NCBI GenBank assembly: GCA_036265815.1
Contig: DATAOI010000087.1
Location: 6,849-70,848 of the forward strand
Length of the DNA: 64,000 nucleotides
Direction: 5' to 3'
DNA from: Gemmatimonadales bacterium
GTDB lineage: Bacteria; Gemmatimonadota; Gemmatimonadetes; Gemmatimonadales; GWC2-71-9
The first letter of the stretch is position 1. Every line of letters starts with the position of its first letter. Of the stretch, positions 1 through 10,992 are shown piece by piece. The notes under the pieces are model-generated. The model saw only the letters and a program-made list of their open reading frames with translations, did no database searches and was not told the origin of the DNA. A program made the position numbers and the translations under genes.

Positions 1-907
1 ACCGCTCGTCCCAGCGGGCGTGTAACTCCTCGGGCAAGCCCTCTCCGGCCGAGGTGGCCAGGCGCAGGGAGGAGAGGTCCTGACGGCCGGCCTCGGGATG
101 ACTCACCATCTGGTTCACCATGGTGGGCACGGTGATCAGGATGGTGGGCCGGTTTCGGGCAATCCGGCTGAAGATCGCGTCCGCGGTGCAACGCTCGTCG
201 AACAGCACGCTGGCGGCGCCGGCCGCGAAGGGAAACAGGAGATTGGAGCCGGTAGCGTAGCCGAAGTAGAGCTTGGGCACCGAGAGCGTCACATCATCCT
301 CGGTATACCTGAGGACCTGCCGGGCGTAGCACTGTGCCGTGTTGACGAACGAGCGATGCGGCTGCACCGCTGCCTTGGGCCGACCGGTGGTGCCGCCGGA
401 GAAGAGCCAGATGGCTGCATCATCCGGGTGGGTGGGGTAGTTCCTCAGGGTCGCCGGTGCCGCGTCGAGCCGCGATCTCCAGTCGCTGCCGCCCACGACC
501 AGCAGCGCGGGTGCATGGGCAGCGTGGCGGCCCGCGGCGCCAAACGCGTCCGCGTGCACCGCGCCCACCAGCGCCACTGCGGCGCGGCTGTACTCGAAGA
601 AATACTCGATGGCCTCGGGCTTGAGCTCCGGGTTCACCATGACGACCACGGCGCCGATCTTGAGGATGCCGAACAGCGCCCCCACGTAGTCGGGCCCATC
701 GGGCAGGGCGATGATCACCCGCTGTTCCGGCGCCACTCCCGCCGAGTTCAGCAGGTTGGCATAGCGGTTGGCCAACGCCTGGACCTCACGATAGGTCCAC
801 CGTCCGGCATCGGTCACCAGCGCGGTCCGGTCGCCCCGGCCCTCGCGTACCCGGGCATCGAGGAAGAAGTCGGCGATGTTGAGACGGGCGGGATCGTCGG
901 TCGTCAT
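1..907 (-). CDS. Aryl-carboxylate--CoA ligase (benzoate/2-aminobenzoate-CoA ligase clade); C-terminal part lies outside the window
   Basis: My own translation of the minus strand from ATG at 907-905 gives MTTDDPARLNIADFFLDARV... It has the AMP-binding P-loop LFSGGTTGRPKA and KLYFGYATG, typical of benzoate-CoA ligases. The frame is open to the window edge, so it is absent from the ORF track. An alternative in-frame ATG lies at 946-944. Confidence 0.85.
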   Translation of the reverse strand, partial: MTTDDPARLNIADFFLDARVREGRGDRTALVTDAGRWTYREVQALANRYANLLNSAGVAPEQRVIIALPDGPDYVGALFGILKIGAVVVMVNPELKPEAIEYFFEYSRAAVALVGAVHADAFGAAGRHAAHAPALLVVGGSDWRSRLDAAPATLRNYPTHPDDAAIWLFSGGTTGRPKAAVQPHRSFVNTAQCYARQVLRYTEDDVTLSVPKLYFGYATGSNLLFPFAAGAASVLFDERCTADAIFSRIARNRPTILITVPTMVNQMVSHPEAGRQDLSSLRLATSAGEGLPEELHARWDER

Positions 908-1030: not shown

Positions 1031-1232
1031 ATCAGGTCGTCCCGCGAATCAAAATGCGCATAGAAGCCGCCATGGGTAAGCCCGGCGCGCTGCACTGGAT
1101 GAGCGGGAATCGAGGTCCGGGTTGACCATCACAACGGGTGCGCCGATCTTCAGAATGCGAGGCAGGGCCCCTATGTAATACCTCCGGCAGTCGAACCGTC
1201 CGAACATCGAGAAAGAACTCGGCGATATTTGC
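1031..1232 (-). pseudogene. Decayed relic of a second aryl-CoA ligase copy (internally deleted, frameshifted)
   Basis: Three minus-strand patches are colinear with the intact ligase. NIAEFFLD (about 1232-1195) matches NIADFFLD. YYIGALPRILKIGAPVVMVNPDL (about 1170-1098) matches DYVGALFGILKIGAVVVMVNPEL; nt 1116-1182 align with 627-693 at roughly three quarters identity by eye. GGFYAHFDSRDDLM (1078-1031) resembles the DGY..GR.DDM ligase box. The patches sit in different frames. Confidence 0.45.
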
Positions 1233-1996
1233 AGCCGCTCGCCGGAATGACCTGGGAAGACGCACGCGAGGCCGCGGGCCCGGGGTCCGCCGCCATTCTG
1301 CCGGTGGGCGCCATCGAGGCGCACGGTCCGCACCTGCCGCTCGAGACGGACGTGATCATCGCCCAGGCGATGGCGCGCGCCGGTGCCGCCCGGCTGAGCG
1401 CGCGGGGACTCCGGGTGGTCGTTCTCCCGCCGCTGACCTACACCGCCGCGGCATTTGCGCAGAACTTTGCGGGGACGCTCTCGCTTCGCCCGGAGACGGT
1501 CACGGCGACGGTGCGGGACATCGCCGCGTGCCTGGTACGGCATGAGTTCGGAGTGCTGGCCATCGCCAACGCGCATCTCGATCCGGAACACCTCGGCTCG
1601 CTCGATGCCGCCGCCGCCCTGATCCGACGCGATCTCGAGCTCGCGGTAGCATGTCCCAACCTCGCGGCCAAGCCGTGGGCCCTCCGGCTGGGGGACGAAT
1701 TCCGCAGCGGCGCGTGCCACGCAGGGCAGTTCGAGACGTCGGTCGTGCTGGCCGAACGGCCGGAGCTGGTCCGCGGGGCACTGATGGCCTCGCTGCCGGC
1801 GAACCCCGTCTCCCTGTCCCGTGCCATCCGCGATGGCAAGCGGAGCTTCGAGGAGGCGGGCGGCGCCCAGGCGTACTTCGGCTTTCCGGCCCAGGCGAGC
1901 GCCGAGGAGGGCCGGGCCACGATCGAGGTGCTCGGTCAGATTCTCGACGAAGCGGTGCAAGCCGAGCTCACCGCCAGGGCCGAGCAGACGAGATGA
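1229..1996 (+). CDS. Creatininase-fold amidohydrolase family protein
   Basis: 255-aa ORF with LPVGAIEAHGPHLPLETDVII, the metal-binding signature of the creatinine amidohydrolase / ArfB / MftE fold. An alternative start is MTWEDA at 1247. Its stop overlaps the next start (ATGA at 1993-1996). Confidence 0.8.
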   Translation: MQPLAGMTWEDAREAAGPGSAAILPVGAIEAHGPHLPLETDVIIAQAMARAGAARLSARGLRVVVLPPLTYTAAAFAQNFAGTLSLRPETVTATVRDIAACLVRHEFGVLAIANAHLDPEHLGSLDAAAALIRRDLELAVACPNLAAKPWALRLGDEFRSGACHAGQFETSVVLAERPELVRGALMASLPANPVSLSRAIRDGKRSFEEAGGAQAYFGFPAQASAEEGRATIEVLGQILDEAVQAELTARAEQTR

Positions 1997-3213
1997 GCTC
2001 CCTGAGCCGTGGAGTGGCTGTGGTGACCGGCGGCGGCCGCGGGATCGGAGCGGCCACCGCCCGCGCGCTGTCGGACGCCGGTCTCGATGTGGTCGTCGCC
2101 GCCCGCACGGGCGAGCAGATCGAGCGCCAGGCCGCCGCGCTGGTGGCCATGGGCCGCCGGGCGAGGGCGGTGGTCTGTGACGTGACCAGCGAAGCCAGCG
2201 TGGAGGCCCTCTCCCGCGCGGCGTCCGAGCTGGGACCGGTGGCGGTTCTGGTCAACAACGCGGGCGCCGCCGGGTCGATGCCTGTGGTCCGGACCTCGCT
2301 CGAGGATTGGAATCGGCTCCTGGCCATCAACGCCACCGGGGCCTTCCTATGCACCCGGGCGTTTCTCCCGGGGATGCTCGAGCGGCAGCAGGGCCGAGTG
2401 ATCAACGTGTCGTCGACGGCGGGTCTCCGCGGGGGGAAGTATCTCGCGGCCTACGCCGCTGCCAAGCACGCGCTGCTGGGTCTCACCCGGTCGGCGGCCG
2501 CCGAGGTTGCCGGCAGCGGGGTGACGGTGAACGCCGTCTGCCCCGGCTTCGTCGATACCGAGATGACATCCGAGACCGTGGCCAGGATCATGGCCAAGAC
2601 CGGCCGCACCCGCGAGGAAGCGCTGGCGGCCGCCCTCGACTCCGAGGGTCAGGTCCGCTTGATCGCGCCCGAAGAGGTGGCGGCGGCGGTGGTCTCGCTC
2701 GCCGCCACTGCGGTTCCCCATGCTCCCAACGGAGAGATCGTGGTCCTGGACGGGAGAGATCAGATGGCCGGCCGCTTCGCGATCATCAACCCCGAGGAGC
2801 TCGGTGCGCCCCGCGGCTGGAACAACGGGATGCTGGCGCACGCGGGGGGAAGGATGCTCTTCATCGCGGGCCAGACCGCGCGGGACAGCTCGGGGCGAGT
2901 GCCGGCCACCGACTTCGTCTCTCAGTTCGATCGGGCGTTGGACAACCTGCTCGCCGTCCTCCGCCATGCCGGCGGCGAGCCGGGTGACATCGGGCGATTC
3001 ACCATCTATGTCACCGACATGGCCCAGTACCGCGCGAGCCTCAAGTCCCTGGGCGAAGTGTACCGACGCCGGATGGGGACACACTACCCGGCGATGGCGC
3101 TGGTGGAGGTGACGTCGCTGGTGGATCCGCAGGCGGTGGTGGAGATCGAAGCAACCGCGGTGCTTGGGGCCAATCTCTCGGTCGATGGCGGGCAGCACAA
3201 GGGAAATCTGTGA
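1993..3213 (+). CDS. Fusion protein: short-chain dehydrogenase/reductase (N-terminal) + RidA/YjgF-family domain (C-terminal)
   Basis: The real start is MSSLSRGVAVVTGGGRGIGAA at ATG 1993; the track ORF 1651..3213 has a spurious N-extension. SDR motifs are TGGGRGIG, NNAG and YAAAKHAL. The same frame then continues into INPEELGAPRGWNNGML...FIAGQTARD...FTIYVTDM...ALVEVTSLVDPQAVVEIEATAV, which is RidA-like. Confidence 0.8.
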   Translation: MSSLSRGVAVVTGGGRGIGAATARALSDAGLDVVVAARTGEQIERQAAALVAMGRRARAVVCDVTSEASVEALSRAASELGPVAVLVNNAGAAGSMPVVRTSLEDWNRLLAINATGAFLCTRAFLPGMLERQQGRVINVSSTAGLRGGKYLAAYAAAKHALLGLTRSAAAEVAGSGVTVNAVCPGFVDTEMTSETVARIMAKTGRTREEALAAALDSEGQVRLIAPEEVAAAVVSLAATAVPHAPNGEIVVLDGRDQMAGRFAIINPEELGAPRGWNNGMLAHAGGRMLFIAGQTARDSSGRVPATDFVSQFDRALDNLLAVLRHAGGEPGDIGRFTIYVTDMAQYRASLKSLGEVYRRRMGTHYPAMALVEVTSLVDPQAVVEIEATAVLGANLSVDGGQHKGNL

Positions 3214-4013
3214 CGCCCCTGCATCCCAGGTCATTTCTCTACACCGTCGACCCGGCGACCGCCGTCGCCACGATCACGCTCAACCGGCCCGAGCGACTCA
3301 ATGCACTCACCTTCGAGGTCTACACCGAGCTCAGGGACACCTTCCGCGCACTCGACGCTGAGCCCGGCATTCGCGCCATCATCATCACCGGCACCGGGCG
3401 AGCCTTCTGCACCGGCGGAGATGTCGAGGACATCATCGGCGCGCTGTTCACCAGGGATGCCGCCGGATTGCTCGACTTCACCCGGCTCACGGGCGATCTC
3501 ATCCTCTCCATCCGCCAGTGTCGCCGCCCGGTGGTGGCGGCGCTCAACGGAACCGTGGCCGGCGCAGGAGCGGTGATCGCGGCGGCCAGCGACATCCGGA
3601 TCGCGGCGGAGAGCGCCAAGATCGCCTTTCTCTTCTCCCGGGTGGGCCTCACGGGCGCCGACATGGGCGCTGCCTGGCTGCTTCCTCGCATCGTCGGCAT
3701 GGCGCACGCGAGCGAGATCCTCATGCTGGGTGACTTTCTCAGCGCCGAGCGCGCAGTCCAGATCGGGCTCTACAACCGGGTGGTCCCCGCGGAGCGGCTG
3801 ATGGCCGAAGCCACCGAGGTCGCCAGCCGGCTGGCGCGGGGACCGTCGGTGGCGCTCGGCGTCACCAAGCAGGCGCTCAATGAGGAGGCCGCGATGACCC
3901 TGGTCTCCGCCCTCGAATGGGAGGCGAAGGCCCAAGCCGAGTGCATGCAGAACCCGAACTTCCGTGAAGCCTACGAGGCGTTCCGCGCCAAGCGCGAACC
4001 GAGGTTCGAGTAG
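3210..4013 (+). CDS. Enoyl-CoA hydratase/isomerase (crotonase) family
   Basis: ITLNRPERLNAL, GTGRAFCTGGDV and VAALNGTVAGAGAVIAAASDIRIA. The GTG start overlaps the upstream stop (GTGA). Confidence 0.9.
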   Translation: MTPLHPRSFLYTVDPATAVATITLNRPERLNALTFEVYTELRDTFRALDAEPGIRAIIITGTGRAFCTGGDVEDIIGALFTRDAAGLLDFTRLTGDLILSIRQCRRPVVAALNGTVAGAGAVIAAASDIRIAAESAKIAFLFSRVGLTGADMGAAWLLPRIVGMAHASEILMLGDFLSAERAVQIGLYNRVVPAERLMAEATEVASRLARGPSVALGVTKQALNEEAAMTLVSALEWEAKAQAECMQNPNFREAYEAFRAKREPRFE

Positions 4014-4016
4014 GTC

Positions 4017-5156
4017 ATGCCCGACGCGAAGCTGATCCGGACCTTTCTCGAGCCGCATCATCCGGTCTTCGCGGACCAAGCCAGGAGCTTCGCGACGGCT
4101 GAGATCGCTCCGCGCCCGGAGCCGGCCGACGATGCCGCGGCTCGGAAGGAGGCGCGCGAGCTGCTTGGCATACTCGGCGTGGGCGGGTGGCTCAAGCCGA
4201 TTCTCGATCTCGACCTCCGTGGCTGCTGCCTCATGCGAGAAGCACTCGCCGAAGTGTCCCCGCTCGCCGACGCGGTGTTTGCGCTGCAGGGGCTTGGCAC
4301 CACGCCGATTCTGTTGGGCGGAACGCAGGCGCAGAAGGACCGATGGCTTGGACCGATTGCCGAGGGCAAGGTCATGACCGCCTTCGCGATGACCGAGGCC
4401 GAGGCGGGGTCGGACGTGGCCGCCATTGCCAGCAACGCGCGGCACGAGGGATCAGGATACGTCATCACCGGAGCCAAGACTCTGATCTCCAACGCCGGCA
4501 TCGCCGATCTCTACATCGTGTTCGCCTCCACCGACCGGCCTAAGGGTGCCAAAGGGATCAGCTGCTTCCTGGTGCCGGCCAACACGTTCGGACTCCGGTT
4601 CCGCCCTCAGGTGCTGAGCGCGCCGCATCCGTTGGGTCAGATCGCCTTCGAGGACTGCCGGGTTCCTGCCGATGCGCTGCTCGGCGACGAGGGACGCGGG
4701 TACGGGCTCGGCCTCGCGGCACTGGACCGGTTGCGGCCGACCGTGGCGGCCGCGGCCTGCGGCATGGCGGCTCGCGCGCTCGCCGAATCACTCGCTCACG
4801 TGAAGCAGCGGAAGCAATTCGGCACCGCCCTGGCCCAATTCCAGCTGGTCCAGCAGAAGCTCGCCCGGATGGCCACCGATCTCACGGCCGCGCGGCTCCT
4901 CACCTATCAGGCGGCCTATGAGAAGGACCAGGGACAGGAGCGAATCACCCGCGAGGCCGCCATGGCCAAATCCTTCGCGACCGAGATGGCCCAGCGGGCT
5001 GTTGACGACGCGGTGCAGCTCATCGGAGGACGCGGCGTGCTGGCCGATCATCCAGTGGAGCGACTGTACCGCGCCGTGCGGGCGCTCCGGATCTACGAGG
5101 GCACGACGGAGATTCAGCAATTGATCATCGCAGGGGAGCTCCTGAAGGAAGGCTGA
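4017..5156 (+). CDS. Acyl-CoA dehydrogenase
   Basis: [28 protein letters not shown] and the C-terminal [18 protein letters not shown]. It starts 3 nt after the crotonase stop. Confidence 0.9.
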
Positions 5157-5216
5157 CGTGGCTCCCCGGTAGCTGCTGGCCCGGCTGACGGCGGCCGTTA
5201 GCTTTAGCCTTGAGCC

Positions 5217-6668
5217 ATGTGGCATCCCGATCCCTTCGTCAAGTATCCGATCCCGGAGACGCATCCACCCACGCTGGCGGACGCGGCGCGATCGCTCTGG
5301 TTCAGCCCACTCGAGTGCGGCCGGCTCGAGCTGCGGGAGCGCACCTGGGTTCCCGCCATGGTGCCGTGGCGGGCGACCGCTGACGGAGTGGTGACACCCG
5401 AGGTGCTCGCGTGGTACGAGCGGTTCGCGCGAGGGCAGCCCGGGGCTCTGGTGGTCGAGGCCACCGGGATCCGCGACATTCCCAGCGGACCGCTCCTCCG
5501 GATCGGAGACGACCGGTTCATTCCCGGCCTGGGGGAGCTGGTGCGCACCGTCCGGCAGGCGAGCGGTGGCCGGACTCGGCTGTTCATCCAGATCATCGAC
5601 TTCCTCCGGATCCGCCGCCGCCCCGAGCCGGAGCGATACTTCCGGGAGTTCCTGGTCCTCACTGAGCGGCACCGCACTCTAGTGCCGGGCAGCGACGACG
5701 CCATCCGGGAGACCCTGGCGCGAATGCCGGAGGCGGAGTGGCCCCGGTTCCTCACTGAGCGCGAGCTGGAGAGCCTGCGATTCGGCGAGCGGGAACGAGT
5801 TACGGATACCGGGCTGCCCCACATCCGGGAGCTGCCGCGCGTCTTGCCGGGGCTGTTCGCTCGAGCGGCGGCCCGCGCGGAGGAGGCGGGGTTCGACGGG
5901 GTGGAGCTGCACTGCGCCCACGCCTACACCATGGCGTCGTTTCTCTCCACCCTCAACCAGCGCGACGATGGCTACGGCGGGTCGCGCGCGGAGCGGGTGA
6001 AGTTGCCGCTCGAGGTCTTCCACGCGGTGCGGCAGAACGTAAGCCAGCGATTCGTGGTCGGGTGCCGGTTCCTGGCCGAGGAATGTATCCCGGGCGGTTA
6101 CACGTCCGAGGATGCCGCCTGGTTCGGCGCCCAGTTCGCGCGGGCGGGAATGGACTACCTCTCGCTCTCTCGAGGGGGCAAGTTCGAGGACGCCAAGCAG
6201 CCGCGGGTGGGCTGGGCCCGGTATCCCTACACCGGACCCAGCGGGTACGAGTGCATGCCGACCGTCCGATCGGATGAACGGGGACCGTTCGGCCGGAACC
6301 GGGAGGCCACCCGCGCGGTGCGGGACGCGGTACTCGCCGCGGGGTGCCGGACGCCGGTCGTCTTGTCGGGTGGCATCTCGACGTTCGAGCAGGCGGAGGA
6401 GCTGCTGCGGGACGGCGCCGCCGACATCATCGCCTCGGCACGACAGAGCCTGGCGGATCCCGACTGGTTCCGGAAGCTCAGGCTCGGCCTGGGCGGCGAA
6501 GTGCGGCGCTGTGTCTTCACCAACTACTGTGAGGGCCTCGACCAGGTGCACAAGCCCGTGACCTGCAAGCTCTGGGATCACCTCGAACTCGACGGCGACG
6601 ATCCGCCGCGCCCCGCCATCGGCCGCCGCCGGTTGGTGGCCCCGCCGTGGGAGCCGGCCGCCAGGTGA
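5217..6668 (+). CDS. Old-yellow-enzyme (OYE) family NADH:flavin oxidoreductase, atypical
   Basis: [44 protein letters not shown] is the OYE TIM-barrel core. A C-terminal [19 protein letters not shown] resembles the FadH Fe-S motif but has only 3 Cys. Confidence 0.8.
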
Positions 6669-8923
6669 GAGTCGCCATCGTAGGGGCGGGGCCCGCCGGC
6701 CTCTATCTCGCCATCCTGCTCAAGCGCGACGACCCCAGCCACCAGGTGACGGTCTATGAGCGGAACCGGGTGGAGGACACGTTCGGCTTCGGGGTGGTGT
6801 TCTCGGACGAGACGCTGGAGAACGTCGGCGAGGCCGATCCCGACACCAACGACGCAATGGCCGCCGCTGCCGCGCGCTGGGAGGAGATCGAGATCCACTA
6901 CCGCGGCACGGTCATGCGCTCCACCGGGCATCGCTTCTCGGGCGTGGAACGGAAGACCCTGCTGGACCTGCTGGCCCGGCGGGCGCAATCGCTGGGCGTC
7001 GAGGTTCAGTGGCAGCGCGAGATTCGAGATCTCACCGACTGCGGCCTTCCCGCCGCCGATCTGATCGTCGCGGCGGACGGCGTGGCCAGCCTGATCCGCG
7101 ACCAGCTGTCTGACACATTCCAACCTCAGCTCGACTGGCGCTACAACCGCTTCGTCTGGCTCGGCAGCGCCCGAGCGTTTCCCGCGTTCACCTTCTACTT
7201 CAAGCCTTCGCCGGCCGGGCTCTGGCGCACCCATGCCTATCAGTATGCTCCCGGACGCTCGACCTTCATCGTGGAGGCCAGGGAAGACACCTGGCAGGCG
7301 AGTGGACTCGACGCGAACGACGAGCGGGGCACCGTCGCGTACCTGGAGCGGCTCTTCCAGGACGAGCTGCAGGGCCATCCGCTGGTGGCCAACCGCTCCA
7401 TCTGGCGCCGGTTTCCCACGGTCCGGAACGCGCGCTGGCACTCGGGGAACGTGGTGCTGCTGGGCGACGCCGCCCACACGGCGCACTTCTCGGTCGGCTC
7501 CGGCACCAAGCTCGCGATGGAAGACGCCATCGCGCTGGCGGCGGCGCTCCGAGCCGAGCGATCGATTCCCGGCGCGCTCGCCAGCTACGAGGCGAGCCGG
7601 CGGCCGCAGGTGGAAAGCCTCCAGCGCGCGGCCCAGGCGAGCCTCGAGTGGTTCGAATCGGTGGAACGTTACCACGATACCGAGCCGCTGCAGTTCGCCT
7701 TCAATCTGCTCACCCGCAGCCTCCGCATCACCCATGAGAACCTGAAGGTTCGCGATCCCGCCCTGGTGAGCCAGGTCGACCGCTGGTTCGCCGAGCAGGC
7801 TGCCAGGCAGAGCGGGCGTCCGGTGACGCTCGAGCCGTGTCCTCCACCCTTGTTCACCCCCTACCGGCTTCGCGAGCTGGTGCTGCCCAACCGGATCGTG
7901 GTCTCCTCGATGTGCCAGTACCGGGCGGAGGACGGGCTTCCGAACGACTGGCACCTGGTCCACCTGGGCAGCCGGGCCATCGGCGGCGCCGGGCTGGTGA
8001 TGACGGAGATGACCGACGTGAGCCGGGAAGGCCGGATCTCCCCCGGCTGCGCCGGGATGTATCTCCCGGGTCATGTTGCCGCATGGCGGCGGATCGTGGA
8101 GTTCGTGCATCAAGGGAGCGAGGCCAAGCTCGGCCTGCAGCTCTCGCACGCGGGGAGGAAGGGATCGACCTGCCGGCTGTGGGAGGGCGAGGATGAGCCG
8201 CTGCCCGACGGGAACTGGCCGCTGATCGCGCCGTCTCCCATCCCCTACCGTTCCCACAACCAGATCCCCCGGGAGATGACCCGGGCCGACATGGACCAGG
8301 TCGCCGCCGACTTCGTCCGGGCCACCGGCATGGCCGACGCTGCCGGGTTCGACCTCCTGGAGCTCCACCTCGCGCATGGGTACCTGCTGGCTTCGTTCAT
8401 CTCGCCTCTCACCAACCGGCGAACCGACGAGTATGGCGGATCCCTCACCAACCGAATGCGCTACCCGCTGGAGATCGTGACCCGGGTCCGCGCCGAGTGG
8501 CCTCAGGCCAAGCCGCTGTCCGTCAGGATCTCGGCCGTCGACTGGGCGCCCGGCGGCACGGAGGCGCACGATGCGGTGGAGGTAGCGCGGATGGTGGTTG
8601 CCGCGGGGGCCGACATCGTGGACGTCTCCGCGGGCCAGACCGTCCCCGAAGCGAAGCCGGTCTACGGTCGGCAGTTCCAGACCCCGTTCAGCGACCGGGT
8701 CCGGCATGAGGCGCGGGTGCCGACGATGACGGTGGGGAACATCTCATCCCCCGCGGACGTCAACACCATCCTGGCCGCCGGCCGGGCGGATCTGGTGGTG
8801 CTGGCGCGAGCGCACCTGTGGGACCCGTACTGGACCCGGCACGCGGCCGCCGACCTGGGGTACACGCTTCCCTGGCCGCCGGAGTACGCAACCTTGAACC
8901 GGTACACTCCCCGACTGCGGTAG
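6647..8923 (+). CDS. Bifunctional FAD-dependent aromatic-ring monooxygenase :: OYE-type reductase (2-aminobenzoyl-CoA monooxygenase/reductase or salicylyl-CoA 5-hydroxylase architecture)
   Basis: N-terminal half: [17 protein letters not shown] (GxGxxG) and [27 protein letters not shown]-terminal half: [40 protein letters not shown]. The likely true start is GTG 6665, overlapping the upstream stop (GTGA). Confidence 0.85.
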
Positions 8924-9001
8924 ATCCGGCTCGGCGTTGCGTGCGCGTCGCCGCGGCTGTTGCTACTCTTGTGTTGCCTCCCCTTGCGAAGAGACCACCG
9001 G

Positions 9002-9781
9002 ATGCCCTCGTACGCCGAATACCTGAAGGTCAATGAGCTGCTCGCGCTCCAGTGTCCTCTGTCGGAGGGCCCGGAGCACGACGAGATGCTCTTCATCGTG
9101 ATCCATCAGGTGTACGAGCTCTGGTTCAAGGAGATCCTCCACGAGCTGGATCACCTCCAGGATCTGCTCTCCCGCAACGACGGCGCCAGGGCCCGGGGCA
9201 CACTCAAGCGCATTCTGACCATCCTCAAGGTGATGGTGGCGCAGCTCGACATCCTGGAAACGATGACGCCACTCGAGTTCCTGTCGTTCCGTGACCGGCT
9301 GGAGTCGGGGAGCGGGTTCCAATCGTTCCAGTTCCGCGAGCTGGAGTTCGCGCTGGGATGGAAGGATCAGAAGGCGGTGGAGCGCCACCCGGCGGGGAGC
9401 GAGGTCCGCCGGCGGTTGGAGCGACGGCTGCACTCACCCTCGCTCTGGGATGGCTTCCTGCGCCATCTGGCTGCCGGCGGCGTCCCGGTGCCCCGGAGCG
9501 ACCTGGAGCGGGACGTGACCCGGCGAGTGGAGCCCTCCCCCGGTCTCCGCGATGCGTTGATTGCCGTGTACCGCAGCCAATCGGCGGAGGCAGAGCTGTG
9601 CGAACGGCTGGTGGATCTCGATGAAGGCATCATGGAGTGGCGCTACCGGCACGTGAAGATGGTGCAGCGGACCATCGGCACCCGCCGTGGCACCGGGGGA
9701 AGCGCGGGCGCGGACTACCTGCTGGCCACACTCAATCAGCCACTGTTTCCGGATCTGTGGGCCATCAGGACCGAGCTCTGA
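9002..9781 (+). CDS. kynA: Tryptophan 2,3-dioxygenase
   Basis: MPSYAEYLKVNELLALQCPLS..HDEMLFIVIHQVYELWFKEILHELD and WRYRHVKMVQRTIG. ATG 9002 is preferred over the TTG at 8960 used by the track. Confidence 0.9.
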   Translation: MPSYAEYLKVNELLALQCPLSEGPEHDEMLFIVIHQVYELWFKEILHELDHLQDLLSRNDGARARGTLKRILTILKVMVAQLDILETMTPLEFLSFRDRLESGSGFQSFQFRELEFALGWKDQKAVERHPAGSEVRRRLERRLHSPSLWDGFLRHLAAGGVPVPRSDLERDVTRRVEPSPGLRDALIAVYRSQSAEAELCERLVDLDEGIMEWRYRHVKMVQRTIGTRRGTGGSAGADYLLATLNQPLFPDLWAIRTEL

Positions 9782-9795
9782 GCCTCGCCAGGGCC

Positions 9796-10992
9796 ATGGA
9801 CCCCGCCTCCCTCTTCGCCTCTCCCAACGCTCTCGCGCCACACTATTCCCGCTTCGGGGTCGCACAGCGACTGCTGCTCACCGGGCACTCCCACCAGGCC
9901 TGGCCGGACTGCGCCTTGGAAGGCCAGGTGAAGGCCTGGGAAGACGCGGCGCGCTACGTCGACGAGAAGTGGGAACACGCGCTGGCTCGAGCCGAGCGGG
10001 TGCGCGAGGGATTCGCCCGGCTCCTGGGAGACGCGGGCGGAGGGATAGCGCTGGGAGCGAACACCCACGAGCTGGTGGTCCGTCTGCTCTCCGCTTTGCC
10101 GCTGGGCACGCGACCCCGGCTGGTGACCACCGACGGTGAGTTCCACAGCATCCGCCGTCAGCTGGATCGCCTGGAGGAGGCAGGTCTCACCGTTGTCCGC
10201 ATCCCCCAGGCCCCCCACCAATCACTGGCTGCCCGGCTGAGCGGCGCGGTAGATGATCGGACGGCCCTGGTGCTGGTCTCTGCCGTCTTCTTCGATACCG
10301 GGCGCATGGCCCACGGGCTCGCCGACGTGGCCGCGAGCTGCCGGCGGCACGGCAGCAGTCTGCTGGTGGACGCGTATCATGCGCTCGACGTCGTGCCGTT
10401 CTCGGTCACGGACGAGGGACTCGGCGACGCGTTCATCGTTGGCGGCGGATACAAGTACTGTCAGCTCGGGGAGGGCAACTGCTTTCTGAGGATCCCGGCG
10501 GACTGCGAGCTTCGCCCCGTAGTGACCGGGTGGTTCAGCGAGTTCACCGTGCTGACGGACCGGCAGCGCGTGGAGCGAGTGGCCTATGGGCAGGGCGGCG
10601 ACCGATTCGCCGGCGCGACCTACGATCCGACCAGTCATTATCGCGCCGTTTCCGTCTTCGAGTTTTTCCGGGAGCGCGGGCTCACGCCTCAGCTCCTCAG
10701 GGCGGTGAGTCAGCACCAGGTCGGGCTGCTCGCCTCCACCTTCGACGCCCTCGATCTCGATCCCGCGATCGTGCGCCGCGACCGCGAGTGCCCGCTCGGC
10801 GAGATCGGTGGTTTCCTCGCTCTCCGAAGCCCGGTGGCGGCCGCTCTGGTGCGTGAGCTCCGGGCGCGAGGCGTGTGGACCGATGCCCGAGGGGATGTCC
10901 TACGGCTCGGCCCGGCGCCATATCTGTCGGACCGGCAGCTGCGCGATGCGGTCGGATTGCTGGGAGAGGCGGCGCGGGGGCATGCCGGCTGA
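9796..10992 (+). CDS. kynU: Kynureninase-family PLP-dependent hydrolase (class V aminotransferase fold)
   Basis: The start is MDPASLF at ATG 9796; the track ORF 9637.. has a spurious extension. GGGYKYCQLGEGNCFL matches the kynureninase PLP-lysine box (xYKYLNxGPG). The gene lies directly downstream of kynA. Confidence 0.7.
   Translation: MDPASLFASPNALAPHYSRFGVAQRLLLTGHSHQAWPDCALEGQVKAWEDAARYVDEKWEHALARAERVREGFARLLGDAGGGIALGANTHELVVRLLSALPLGTRPRLVTTDGEFHSIRRQLDRLEEAGLTVVRIPQAPHQSLAARLSGAVDDRTALVLVSAVFFDTGRMAHGLADVAASCRRHGSSLLVDAYHALDVVPFSVTDEGLGDAFIVGGGYKYCQLGEGNCFLRIPADCELRPVVTGWFSEFTVLTDRQRVERVAYGQGGDRFAGATYDPTSHYRAVSVFEFFRERGLTPQLLRAVSQHQVGLLASTFDALDLDPAIVRRDRECPLGEIGGFLALRSPVAAALVRELRARGVWTDARGDVLRLGPAPYLSDRQLRDAVGLLGEAARGHAG

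Follow-up and report, generated by a model that had tools for sequence, protein, structure and literature searches.

Among the described systems close to the locus presented here are the abm clusters for aerobic 2-aminobenzoate (anthranilate) degradation in Azoarcus (Aromatoleum) evansii. As reviews describe them, they share with this locus a coenzyme A (CoA) ligase, the 2-aminobenzoyl-CoA monooxygenase/reductase (ACMR) and 'beta-oxidation-like' genes. As to the fate of the ACMR product, all that the reviews state is that it is degraded further 'by enzymes of beta-oxidation' (PMC4539516), and GapMind 2022, a pathway-curation effort, does not cover the tryptophan route through anthraniloyl-CoA monooxygenase/reductase 'due to a lack of knowledge' (PMC9007349). 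In this report we address a gene of a Gemmatimonadales bacterium, located in a 64,000-nucleotide stretch of contig DATAOI010000087.1 (assembly GCA_036265815.1), which is referred to as the window throughout. A preliminary description of this DNA had called the nitrogen-removal step of the pathway unassigned, which the omission in GapMind bears out. Compared with the abm clusters, the window adds genes for a creatininase-family protein, an OYE-like flavoprotein, a tryptophan 2,3-dioxygenase (TDO) and a kynureninase, and it fuses a short-chain dehydrogenase/reductase (SDR) to a domain of the Rid fold. The fusion is very probably a real bifunctional protein of the 2-aminobenzoyl-CoA pathway that acts next to ACMR. 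For the specific mechanism, a deaminase combined with carbonyl redox chemistry on the ACMR product, the chances appear evenly balanced. The identities of the domains, the operon context, the way the fusion came about, the joint inheritance with ACMR and an invariant methionine in the Rid domain are shown here, whereas we infer which substrates are used, that the Rid domain deaminates, and where and in which direction the SDR works.

The Rid fold is known for the hydrolysis of enamines and imines, including that by 2-aminomuconate deaminase in aromatic-amine catabolism (PMC4433059, PMC6742747). With the RidA/YjgF/TdcF deaminases, represented by RidA of Escherichia coli and Salmonella enterica, the domain of the window shares the fold (PF01042), the glutamate at position Glu120, an aromatic residue at position Tyr17 and, as proposed, the reaction of an imine with water. 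It differs by an invariant methionine in place of Arg105, by leucine or valine in place of Cys107, by a score below the TIGR00004 cut-off, by its fusion or coupling to an SDR, and by its proposed substrate, a beta-enamino CoA thioester instead of a free 2-imino acid. The best functional precedent is the 2-aminomuconate deaminase AmnE/NbaF/CnbZ (PDB 6izh), a Rid-fold enamine deaminase on the main line of aromatic-amine catabolism, whose substrate, formed by ring cleavage, is a free dicarboxylic acid and which resembles the window domain only weakly in sequence (E 0.0023). The arginine-less Rid proteins of the subfamilies Rid4 to Rid7, such as the Rid5/6-like Y3550 of Yersinia pestis, and the protein of PDB 5v4f likewise lack the arginine and keep the glutamate, whereas the group described here has an invariant methionine and a fixed genomic context. 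For the SDR half, BadH and BadI of Rhodopseudomonas palustris are instructive, where an SDR acts on a cyclohexane-carbonyl-CoA ester ahead of a ring hydrolase of the crotonase family. BadH is among the NCBIfam matches of the SDR domain, but the latter scores far below the cut-off (144.7 versus 431 bits) and is not a member; a BadH-type step at C2 would not be needed, because C2 of the ACMR product has already reached the oxidation level of a ketone.

Rid domains, SDRs and ACMR clusters have all been described before, and the unfused genes are publicly annotated as 'RidA family protein'. What is new is a distinct methionine-type, arginine-less Rid group that is co-inherited with ACMR across bacteria and haloarchaea, and its repeated fusion or translational coupling to one particular SDR. 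A literature search found no paper linking RidA with anthraniloyl-CoA.

A fused SDR and an arginine-less Rid domain

The preliminary description had reported one uninterrupted frame carrying the SDR motifs TGGGRGIG (aa 12-19), NNAG (aa 88-91) and YAAAKHAL (aa 154-161), a short linker and a C-terminal stretch. Every one of these was found as quoted, the linker within GRDQMAGRFAIINPEEL (aa 254-270) and the stretch near the end of the Rid domain as ALVEVTSLVDPQAVVEIEATAV (aa 369-390), and positions 1993-3213 contain neither an internal stop nor an ambiguous base (N). The profile check that it had proposed also returned both domains, adh_short (aa 8-195, E 1.7e-58, 197.8 bits against a cut-off of 26.6) and Ribonuc_L-PSP (aa 285-390, E 2.6e-19, 69.8 bits against 27.3). 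At third codon positions, the G+C content (GC3) of the SDR half (0.87) hardly differs from that of the Rid half (0.88), and the neighboring genes are alike. At its 5' end, the gene overlaps the stop of the upstream gene with its ATG at 1993 (ATGA); at its 3' end, the stop (3211-3213) shares nucleotides with the GTG that starts the next gene. Both domains are present in all 120 best-scoring homologous protein clusters (81-85% identity, about 392 aa; those with names belong to Gemmatimonadales), and therefore the junction is not a sequencing error. Among 1.84 billion representatives (50% identity level), only about four more clusters with the full-length fusion turned up, at 35-53% identity.

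In the SDR domain, the catalytic tetrad Asn113/Ser141/Tyr154/Lys158 is intact, and the motif and tetrad positions are invariant or at least 90% conserved among 26 aligned fusion proteins. Arg38, directly after strand beta-2, is invariant in these proteins as well. An arginine after beta-2 is a signature of NADP(H)-type SDRs, and its presence points to NADP(H) as the likely cofactor. None of the named NCBIfam SDR equivalog cut-offs (3-hydroxybutyrate dehydrogenase, FabG, BadH, acetoacetyl-CoA reductase) was reached; the best equivalog score was that of PRK12429 (194.9 versus 258), and BadH scored 144.7 versus 431.2. The closest solved SDR is an uncharacterized protein of Thermus caliditerrae released in 2024 (9fe6/9feb; E 1.4e-52, Foldseek TMt 0.85), with which the ACMR-adjacent SDRs of Rhizobium and Ralstonia share 51-54% identity; unlike the fusion, it is a single-domain protein. 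A paper search found no relevant publication on 9FE6/9FEB. Modeling the monomer with AlphaFold on a diverse fusion alignment gave a mean pLDDT of 76.6 (52 with a shallow alignment) and two well-folded domains, with low confidence in the linker (aa 256-261) and the tail (aa 394-406). Foldseek searches against the PDB matched about 255 columns, within the SDR half only, and no solved protein with the SDR plus Rid layout was among these matches.

The Rid domain matched 44 solved Rid structures, and in alignments with solved RidA proteins the P-A-R-S/A of RidA corresponds to P-A-M-A in the window. Met368 (nucleotides 3094-3096) is located at the position of RidA Arg105, Trp276 at that of Tyr17 and Glu384 at that of Glu120. 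The preliminary description had asked whether the active-site arginine of RidA is conserved, and it is not; an invariant methionine takes its place. Likewise, its assignment of a YjgF/RidA-like domain holds for the Pfam family Ribonuc_L-PSP, but the TIGR00004 cut-off is missed and the domain is not a canonical RidA. Membership in the RidA-type deaminases thus fails, and the group is therefore named Rid-M, after the invariant methionine. Among the 57 pathway-linked Rid domains that were aligned with E. coli RidA, Glu120 is kept in 56 and the Tyr17 position is tyrosine, tryptophan or phenylalanine in 56, while Ser30 is mostly replaced by alanine and Cys107 by leucine or valine. The methionine is also found in the Ralstonia and Paracoccus copies and in every full-length Rid-M match across the loci. 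The described subfamilies without the arginine, Rid4 to Rid7, 'remain mysterious' (PMC4433059); they have tryptophan at this position in Rid4 and Rid7 and variable residues in Rid5 and Rid6 (PMC4433059). Methionine rather than tryptophan argues against membership in Rid4 and Rid7.

Co-inheritance with ACMR and the operon of the window

Species-representative genomes were scanned with the fusion protein as the seed, which enriches for SDR-containing clusters, and 80 loci were returned. The operon proteins of the window were mapped onto all loci, and the cluster was present in 71. A hidden Markov model (HMM) of the Rid domain built from these sequences detected Rid-M copies in 58 of these, whereas 12 loci that have merely an unrelated SDR gave none; ACMR and Rid-M were both present in 40 loci. 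The 13 cluster loci without a Rid-M copy comprise 4 truncated contigs and 9 with full 10-kb flanks. Among the plasmids of PLSDB, 227 records carry a Rid-M homologue and 240 a full-length ACMR, with matching counts per genus for Ralstonia (137/137) and Paracoccus (12/12). The pair of SDR and Rid accompanies ACMR in Gemmatimonadota, Acidobacteriota, Myxococcota, Alpha- and Betaproteobacteria and haloarchaea. The preliminary description had suggested looking for the same fusion beside ACMR in other genomes, and the pair, fused or adjacent, is found there in at least six phyla.

Annotated plasmids and megaplasmids carry the set as separate genes, and two cluster types can be distinguished (Table 1). 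Apart from the type with crotonase and acyl-CoA dehydrogenase (ACAD), a second type in Rhizobium (L001) and Alloyangia keeps the ligase, ACMR, SDR and Rid genes and has a thioesterase, a cupin, an FAH-type hydrolase, a second SDR and an alpha/beta hydrolase in place of crotonase and ACAD. It carries a cupin without a family match and an FAH-type enzyme that resembles a diketo-acid hydrolase, for which a gentisate route was considered, and it suggests an alternative lower pathway which may branch off once SDR and Rid have acted. Both types have the ligase, ACMR, SDR and Rid in common, and this shared core would place the SDR and Rid steps immediately after ACMR, upstream of either lower route. 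In Proteobacteria, the Rid gene overlaps the gene of a hotdog thioesterase by 8 nt (Rhizobium L001:12729-13536, Paracoccus L084:14977-15784) or is adjacent to it (Ralstonia L083:16436-17266), and is thus coupled to the thioesterase and not to the SDR. The gene orders of Ralstonia and Paracoccus probably resemble the layout of the abm clusters. On a plasmid of the haloarchaeon Natronosalvus halobius, an SDR gene lies next to a methionine-type Rid gene, so that the module is shared by Bacteria and Archaea. The same plasmid has genes for acyl-CoA dehydrogenases, a thiolase and a crotonase in the vicinity.

In the window itself, the genes from 1229 to 10992 are co-directional and tightly packed. 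Together with the divergent gene at the left end, presumed to encode an anthranilate-CoA ligase and conserved in its position in relatives, they are predicted to form a complete gene set from tryptophan via anthranilate and anthraniloyl-CoA to the dearomatized CoA ester. This bears out the earlier assignment of the fusion to the 2-aminobenzoyl-CoA pathway; TDO and kynureninase genes stand alongside. In nearly every related locus, the crotonase gene follows those for SDR and Rid. The creatininase-family gene recurs immediately ahead of the SDR gene in loci of Gemmatimonadota, Acidobacteriota and Myxococcota and is retained in clusters without TDO and kynureninase within 10 kb; proteobacterial clusters have a hotdog thioesterase instead, and the haloarchaeal cluster is without it too. 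No KynB-type formamidase is visible beside TDO and kynureninase, and the creatininase-family protein may therefore be the N-formylkynurenine formamidase or an amidase of the pathway. PDB searches with this protein and with the crotonase gave no functional clue. Orthologues of the OYE-like flavoprotein (42-58% identity) occur at L086:8467-9939 and L088:4346-5824, in loci without ACMR in the available flanks, and the orthologues of the kynureninase-like enzyme in the same two loci are annotated Aminotran_5 plus KYNU_C. The flavoprotein may conceivably take part in dearomatization or in ene-reduction.

Table 1. Features of the window (nucleotide positions) and gene orders of related clusters (locus positions where given)
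Feature or locus	Position	Strand	Remarks
SDR::Rid-M fusion gene	1993-3213	+	single open reading frame, 406 codons, no internal stop
Classical SDR domain	2014-2754	+	aa 8-254
Linker RDQMAGR	2755-2775	+	7 residues between SDR and Rid domains
Rid/YjgF-fold domain, arginine-less Rid-M type	2776-3168	+	aa 262-392
C-terminal tail ANLSVDGGQHKGNL and stop	3169-3213	+	aa 393-406, 14 residues past the Rid domain
Benzoate-CoA-ligase-family gene	1-907	-	divergent, cut by the left end of the window; TIGR02262 225.7 bits (302-aa fragment)
Creatininase-family amidohydrolase	1229-1996	+	PF02633 E 8.9e-54; ATGA-coupled to the fusion gene
Crotonase/enoyl-CoA hydratase family (PRK08258)	3210-4013	+	NF006107 369.6 bits, cut-off 330
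Acyl-CoA dehydrogenase (ACAD)	4017-5156	+	Pfam ACAD N, M and C domains; conserved in the cluster
Divergent OYE-like flavoprotein, 483 aa	5217-6668	+	PF00724 on aa 214-425
ACMR, 2-aminobenzoyl-CoA monooxygenase/reductase (PRK08255 family)	6647-8923	+	NF006101 1108.8 bits, cut-off 1078
Tryptophan 2,3-dioxygenase (TDO)	8960-9781	+	PF03301 E 1.4e-62; TIGR03036 E 9.9e-83
Kynureninase-like PLP enzyme	9796-10992	+	KYNU_C domain; start approximate
Ralstonia solanacearum (L083)			ACMR-SDR-MarR-crotonase-ACAD-ligase-thioesterase-RidA; separate genes
Paracoccus versutus (L084)			ACMR-SDR-MarR-crotonase-ACAD-cupin-thioesterase-RidA-ligase; separate genes
Sphingomonadales			ACMR-SDR-crotonase-ACAD-Rid; separate genes
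Gemmatirosa kalamazoonensis, cultured (L089)			SDR-crotonase-ACAD-ligase-Rid; separate genes
Natronosalvus halobius plasmid	L002:8796-15993		adjacent SDR and Met-type Rid, about 4 kb from an ACMR-like 720-aa flavoprotein
Rhizobium leguminosarum plasmid p3	L001:9600-16461		ACMR-SDR-thioesterase-Rid-cupin-FAH-type diketo-acid hydrolase-SDR-alpha/beta hydrolase

Origin of the fusion

A frame-by-frame check of the scanned loci located in-frame fusions in only one Gemmatimonadales clade, at 65% identity or more (the window, L003-L016 and L020). In other Gemmatimonadota, Vicinamibacteria, other Acidobacteriota, Thermoanaerobaculia, Casimicrobiaceae and Myxococcota, SDR and Rid are encoded by separate adjacent genes. 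The preliminary description was thus right that the fusion exists, but the architecture is not fixed, being a lineage-specific join of two overlapping genes. In the unfused relatives, the stop of the SDR gene overlaps the start of the Rid gene as ATGA or GTGA, exactly at the position of the linker, and Met258 of the window linker (nucleotides 2764-2766) is the counterpart of the ATG that starts the unfused Rid gene. Met258 is probably the ancestral start codon of a once-separate Rid gene, and the fusion is therefore traced to loss of the 4-nt stop/start overlap.

In a neighbor-joining tree of SDR plus Rid, one fused clade is seen with one split member nested inside, and four other fused sequences (L085-L088) lie on separate branches among split ones, such that in-frame fusions occupy at least five separate branches. 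The fusion has therefore happened repeatedly, and repeated fusion is a classic signature of functionally coupled partners. The nested split member, L019:10001-11163, is a genuine GTGA-overlapped pair inside the otherwise fused clade. A long-read metagenome-assembled genome (L017:10001-11234) has a frameshift within the Rid region, probably an assembly indel. Two readings of the searches were rejected. Matches to query residues 1-391 had suggested a fusion widespread across phyla, but most of these loci hold two genes in different frames; and long open frames upstream of Rid in Sphingomonadales had suggested ACAD::Rid fusions, but the ACAD and Rid matches lie in different frames, so these open frames are chance products of GC-rich DNA.

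The 3' end of the fusion gene has a history of its own. In close relatives, a second SDR gene is located between the fusion and crotonase genes, and the tail ANLSVDGGQHKGNL matches the C-terminus of this second SDR (252 aa, ending VVVDGGQHKGNF) in L003:11190-11948. DNA alignment with L003 revealed a deletion of about 740 bp in the window, which took the fusion's own stop and nearly all of the second SDR gene and left the tail as a remnant. A comparable second SDR is present in the Rhizobium cluster.

A proposed deamination step and its alternatives

ACMR yields 2-amino-5-oxocyclohex-1-ene-1-carbonyl-CoA, a beta-enamino thioester on which, in the proposed mechanism, both domains would act directly. 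Rid-M would bind the imine tautomer and add water, releasing ammonia and 2,5-dioxocyclohexane-1-carbonyl-CoA. Before or after this step, the SDR would act on a ring carbonyl, most plausibly that at C5, either by NADPH-dependent reduction to a 5-hydroxy compound, which would feed the crotonase/ACAD route, or by a dehydrogenation that would re-aromatize the ring to gentisyl-CoA. The crotonase (PRK08258) and the acyl-CoA dehydrogenase would carry on the breakdown, and tight coupling or fusion would protect the labile 1,4-diketone beta-keto-thioester. The arginine of RidA pairs with the free carboxylate of the 2-imino acid substrate; since the carboxylate of the proposed substrate is thioesterified, a change from arginine to a hydrophobic methionine would be expected. 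A CoA ester of C7H8O4 was reported for anthranilate-grown Arthrobacter sp. Rue61a and interpreted as cyclohexanedione-carboxyl-CoA (PMC3534580), which is the expected deamination product still bound to CoA and is thus counted in favor of the proposal. Redox-coupled deamination of the enamine was the idea of the preliminary description; gene context supports it and it is the best hypothesis, although the test by the active-site arginine went against it.

Several observations weigh against a deaminase. Methionine is found at the Arg105 position in 57 of 57 pathway-linked Rid domains, and Niehaus et al. (2015, PMC4433059) describe this arginine as indispensable for the hydrolysis of imines. The score of 53.8 bits against TIGR00004 ('Rid family detoxifying hydrolase') is below the cut-off of 106.25, and the nearest solved Rid structure, 5v4f (E 2e-13), is arginine-less too, with phenylalanine at position 17. 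The Rid7 protein of S. enterica shows no imine-deaminase activity (PMC4433059), and the arginine-less Y3550 of Y. pestis, which is Rid5/6-like, is inactive on 2-aminoacrylate (PMC7221256). AmnE, the only characterized Rid enamine deaminase of aromatic catabolism, has a conserved arginine (Arg117) in its ligand pocket, as do TdcF and hp14.5 (PMC6742747). The distribution also contains gaps, as the nine full-flank loci, from eight Rhodobacteraceae (mostly Leisingera) and one uncultured alphaproteobacterium, have ACMR, SDR, crotonase and ACAD but no Rid-M within 10 kb, and the distant fusion loci L085, L086 and L088 carry ligase, crotonase, ACAD, creatininase-family and/or kynureninase genes without ACMR in the available flanks. 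Finally, other enzymes of the cluster could take the nitrogen, namely the crotonase via a C2 carbinolamine or the creatininase-family protein as an amidohydrolase.

The last point leads to an explanation which is unlikely but of real weight, in which the fusion belongs to the pathway and Rid-M is not a deaminase. The domain might be a tautomerase or isomerase (enamine-imine or keto-enol), a decarboxylase, or a module for binding and handover of a labile CoA ester, and the nitrogen would leave via the crotonase, by hydration of the 2-amino-enoyl-CoA and collapse of the carbinolamine, or, after ring opening to an amide, via the creatininase-family amidohydrolase. This would fit the invariant methionine in place of the catalytic arginine and the arginine-less subfamilies without known imine hydrolase activity, as well as the crotonase, which is conserved in the clusters as much as Rid-M, and the ATGA-coupled creatininase-family gene, which is kept where TDO and kynureninase are not within 10 kb. 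However, proteobacterial and haloarchaeal clusters keep Rid-M without a creatininase-family gene and the Rhizobium-type cluster has Rid-M without crotonase, so neither alternative nitrogen remover is universal, and we know of no Rid-fold tautomerase acting on CoA esters. A smaller probability is attached to damage control, shared in Proteobacteria with the hotdog thioesterase, in place of a main-line role. Rid-M would then neutralize reactive side products of the imine or quinone-imine type, such as those from 5-hydroxyanthraniloyl-CoA, and the main deamination would be spontaneous or take place elsewhere. The classic role of Rid proteins is the pre-emption of enamine and imine damage, the Rid-M gene overlaps or adjoins the thioesterase gene in Rhizobium, Paracoccus and Ralstonia, some ACMR clusters have no Rid-M nearby, and ACMR makes 5-hydroxyanthraniloyl-CoA when NADH is limiting (PMC3534580). 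Yet the recurrent fusion or coupling to an SDR and the near one-to-one co-occurrence with ACMR on replicons fit a stoichiometric step better, and the pathway needs nitrogen removal anyway.

That the cluster degrades salicylate, leaving no nitrogen to remove and an unrelated role for Rid, is very improbable. It would be consistent with the NCBIfam name of PRK08255, 'bifunctional salicylyl-CoA 5-hydroxylase/oxidoreductase', whose model ACMR passes and by which proteobacterial homologues are called. The PRK08255 family nevertheless includes the characterized 2-aminobenzoyl-CoA enzyme of Azoarcus evansii (PMC3534580), and the anthranilate-producing TDO and kynureninase lie directly downstream in the same orientation, as they do in many relatives; because these genes adjoin, anthranilate and not salicylate is the likely ACMR substrate. 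It is scarcely credible that the fusion is an accident of a decaying locus, arising from indel read-through or assembly error and devoid of functional meaning. The deletion-derived tail and the toggling of close relatives between fused and split states (L019, and the frameshifted L017) could be read in this way, but the same in-frame junction recurs in the 120 best-scoring clusters and 15 other genome loci, GC3 is 0.87-0.88 in either half, the catalytic motifs are intact, and independent fusions occur in other lineages.

The proposal that Rid-M deaminates the enamine of the ACMR product, if true, would close the nitrogen-removal gap that the aerobic anthraniloyl-CoA pathway has had since the 1990s, and the fusion to an NADP(H)-type SDR would reflect the handover of an unstable 1,4-diketone CoA ester. 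Joining a dimeric or tetrameric SDR to a trimeric Rid by a short linker would force the protein into a closed higher-order assembly such as a D3 hexamer or a tetrahedral 12-mer. Possibly, although the chances are somewhat below even, Rid-M is the first arginine-less Rid subfamily with an assigned function, that of a CoA-thioester beta-enamine deaminase, with the SDR fusion serving diketone handover. The unknown part of the pathway is narrowed to a small set of components inherited together, namely ACMR, an SDR and an arginine-less Rid protein, which gives the first strong testable functional lead for an arginine-less subfamily of those called 'mysterious' (PMC4433059). The pair of SDR and Rid-M is found in culturable hosts, including Paracoccus denitrificans PD1222, Ralstonia solanacearum, Ruegeria pomeroyi DSS-3 and Gemmatirosa kalamazoonensis. 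As the system is abundant in Gemmatimonadota and Acidobacteriota of soils, it probably matters for the turnover of tryptophan-derived nitrogen in soil.

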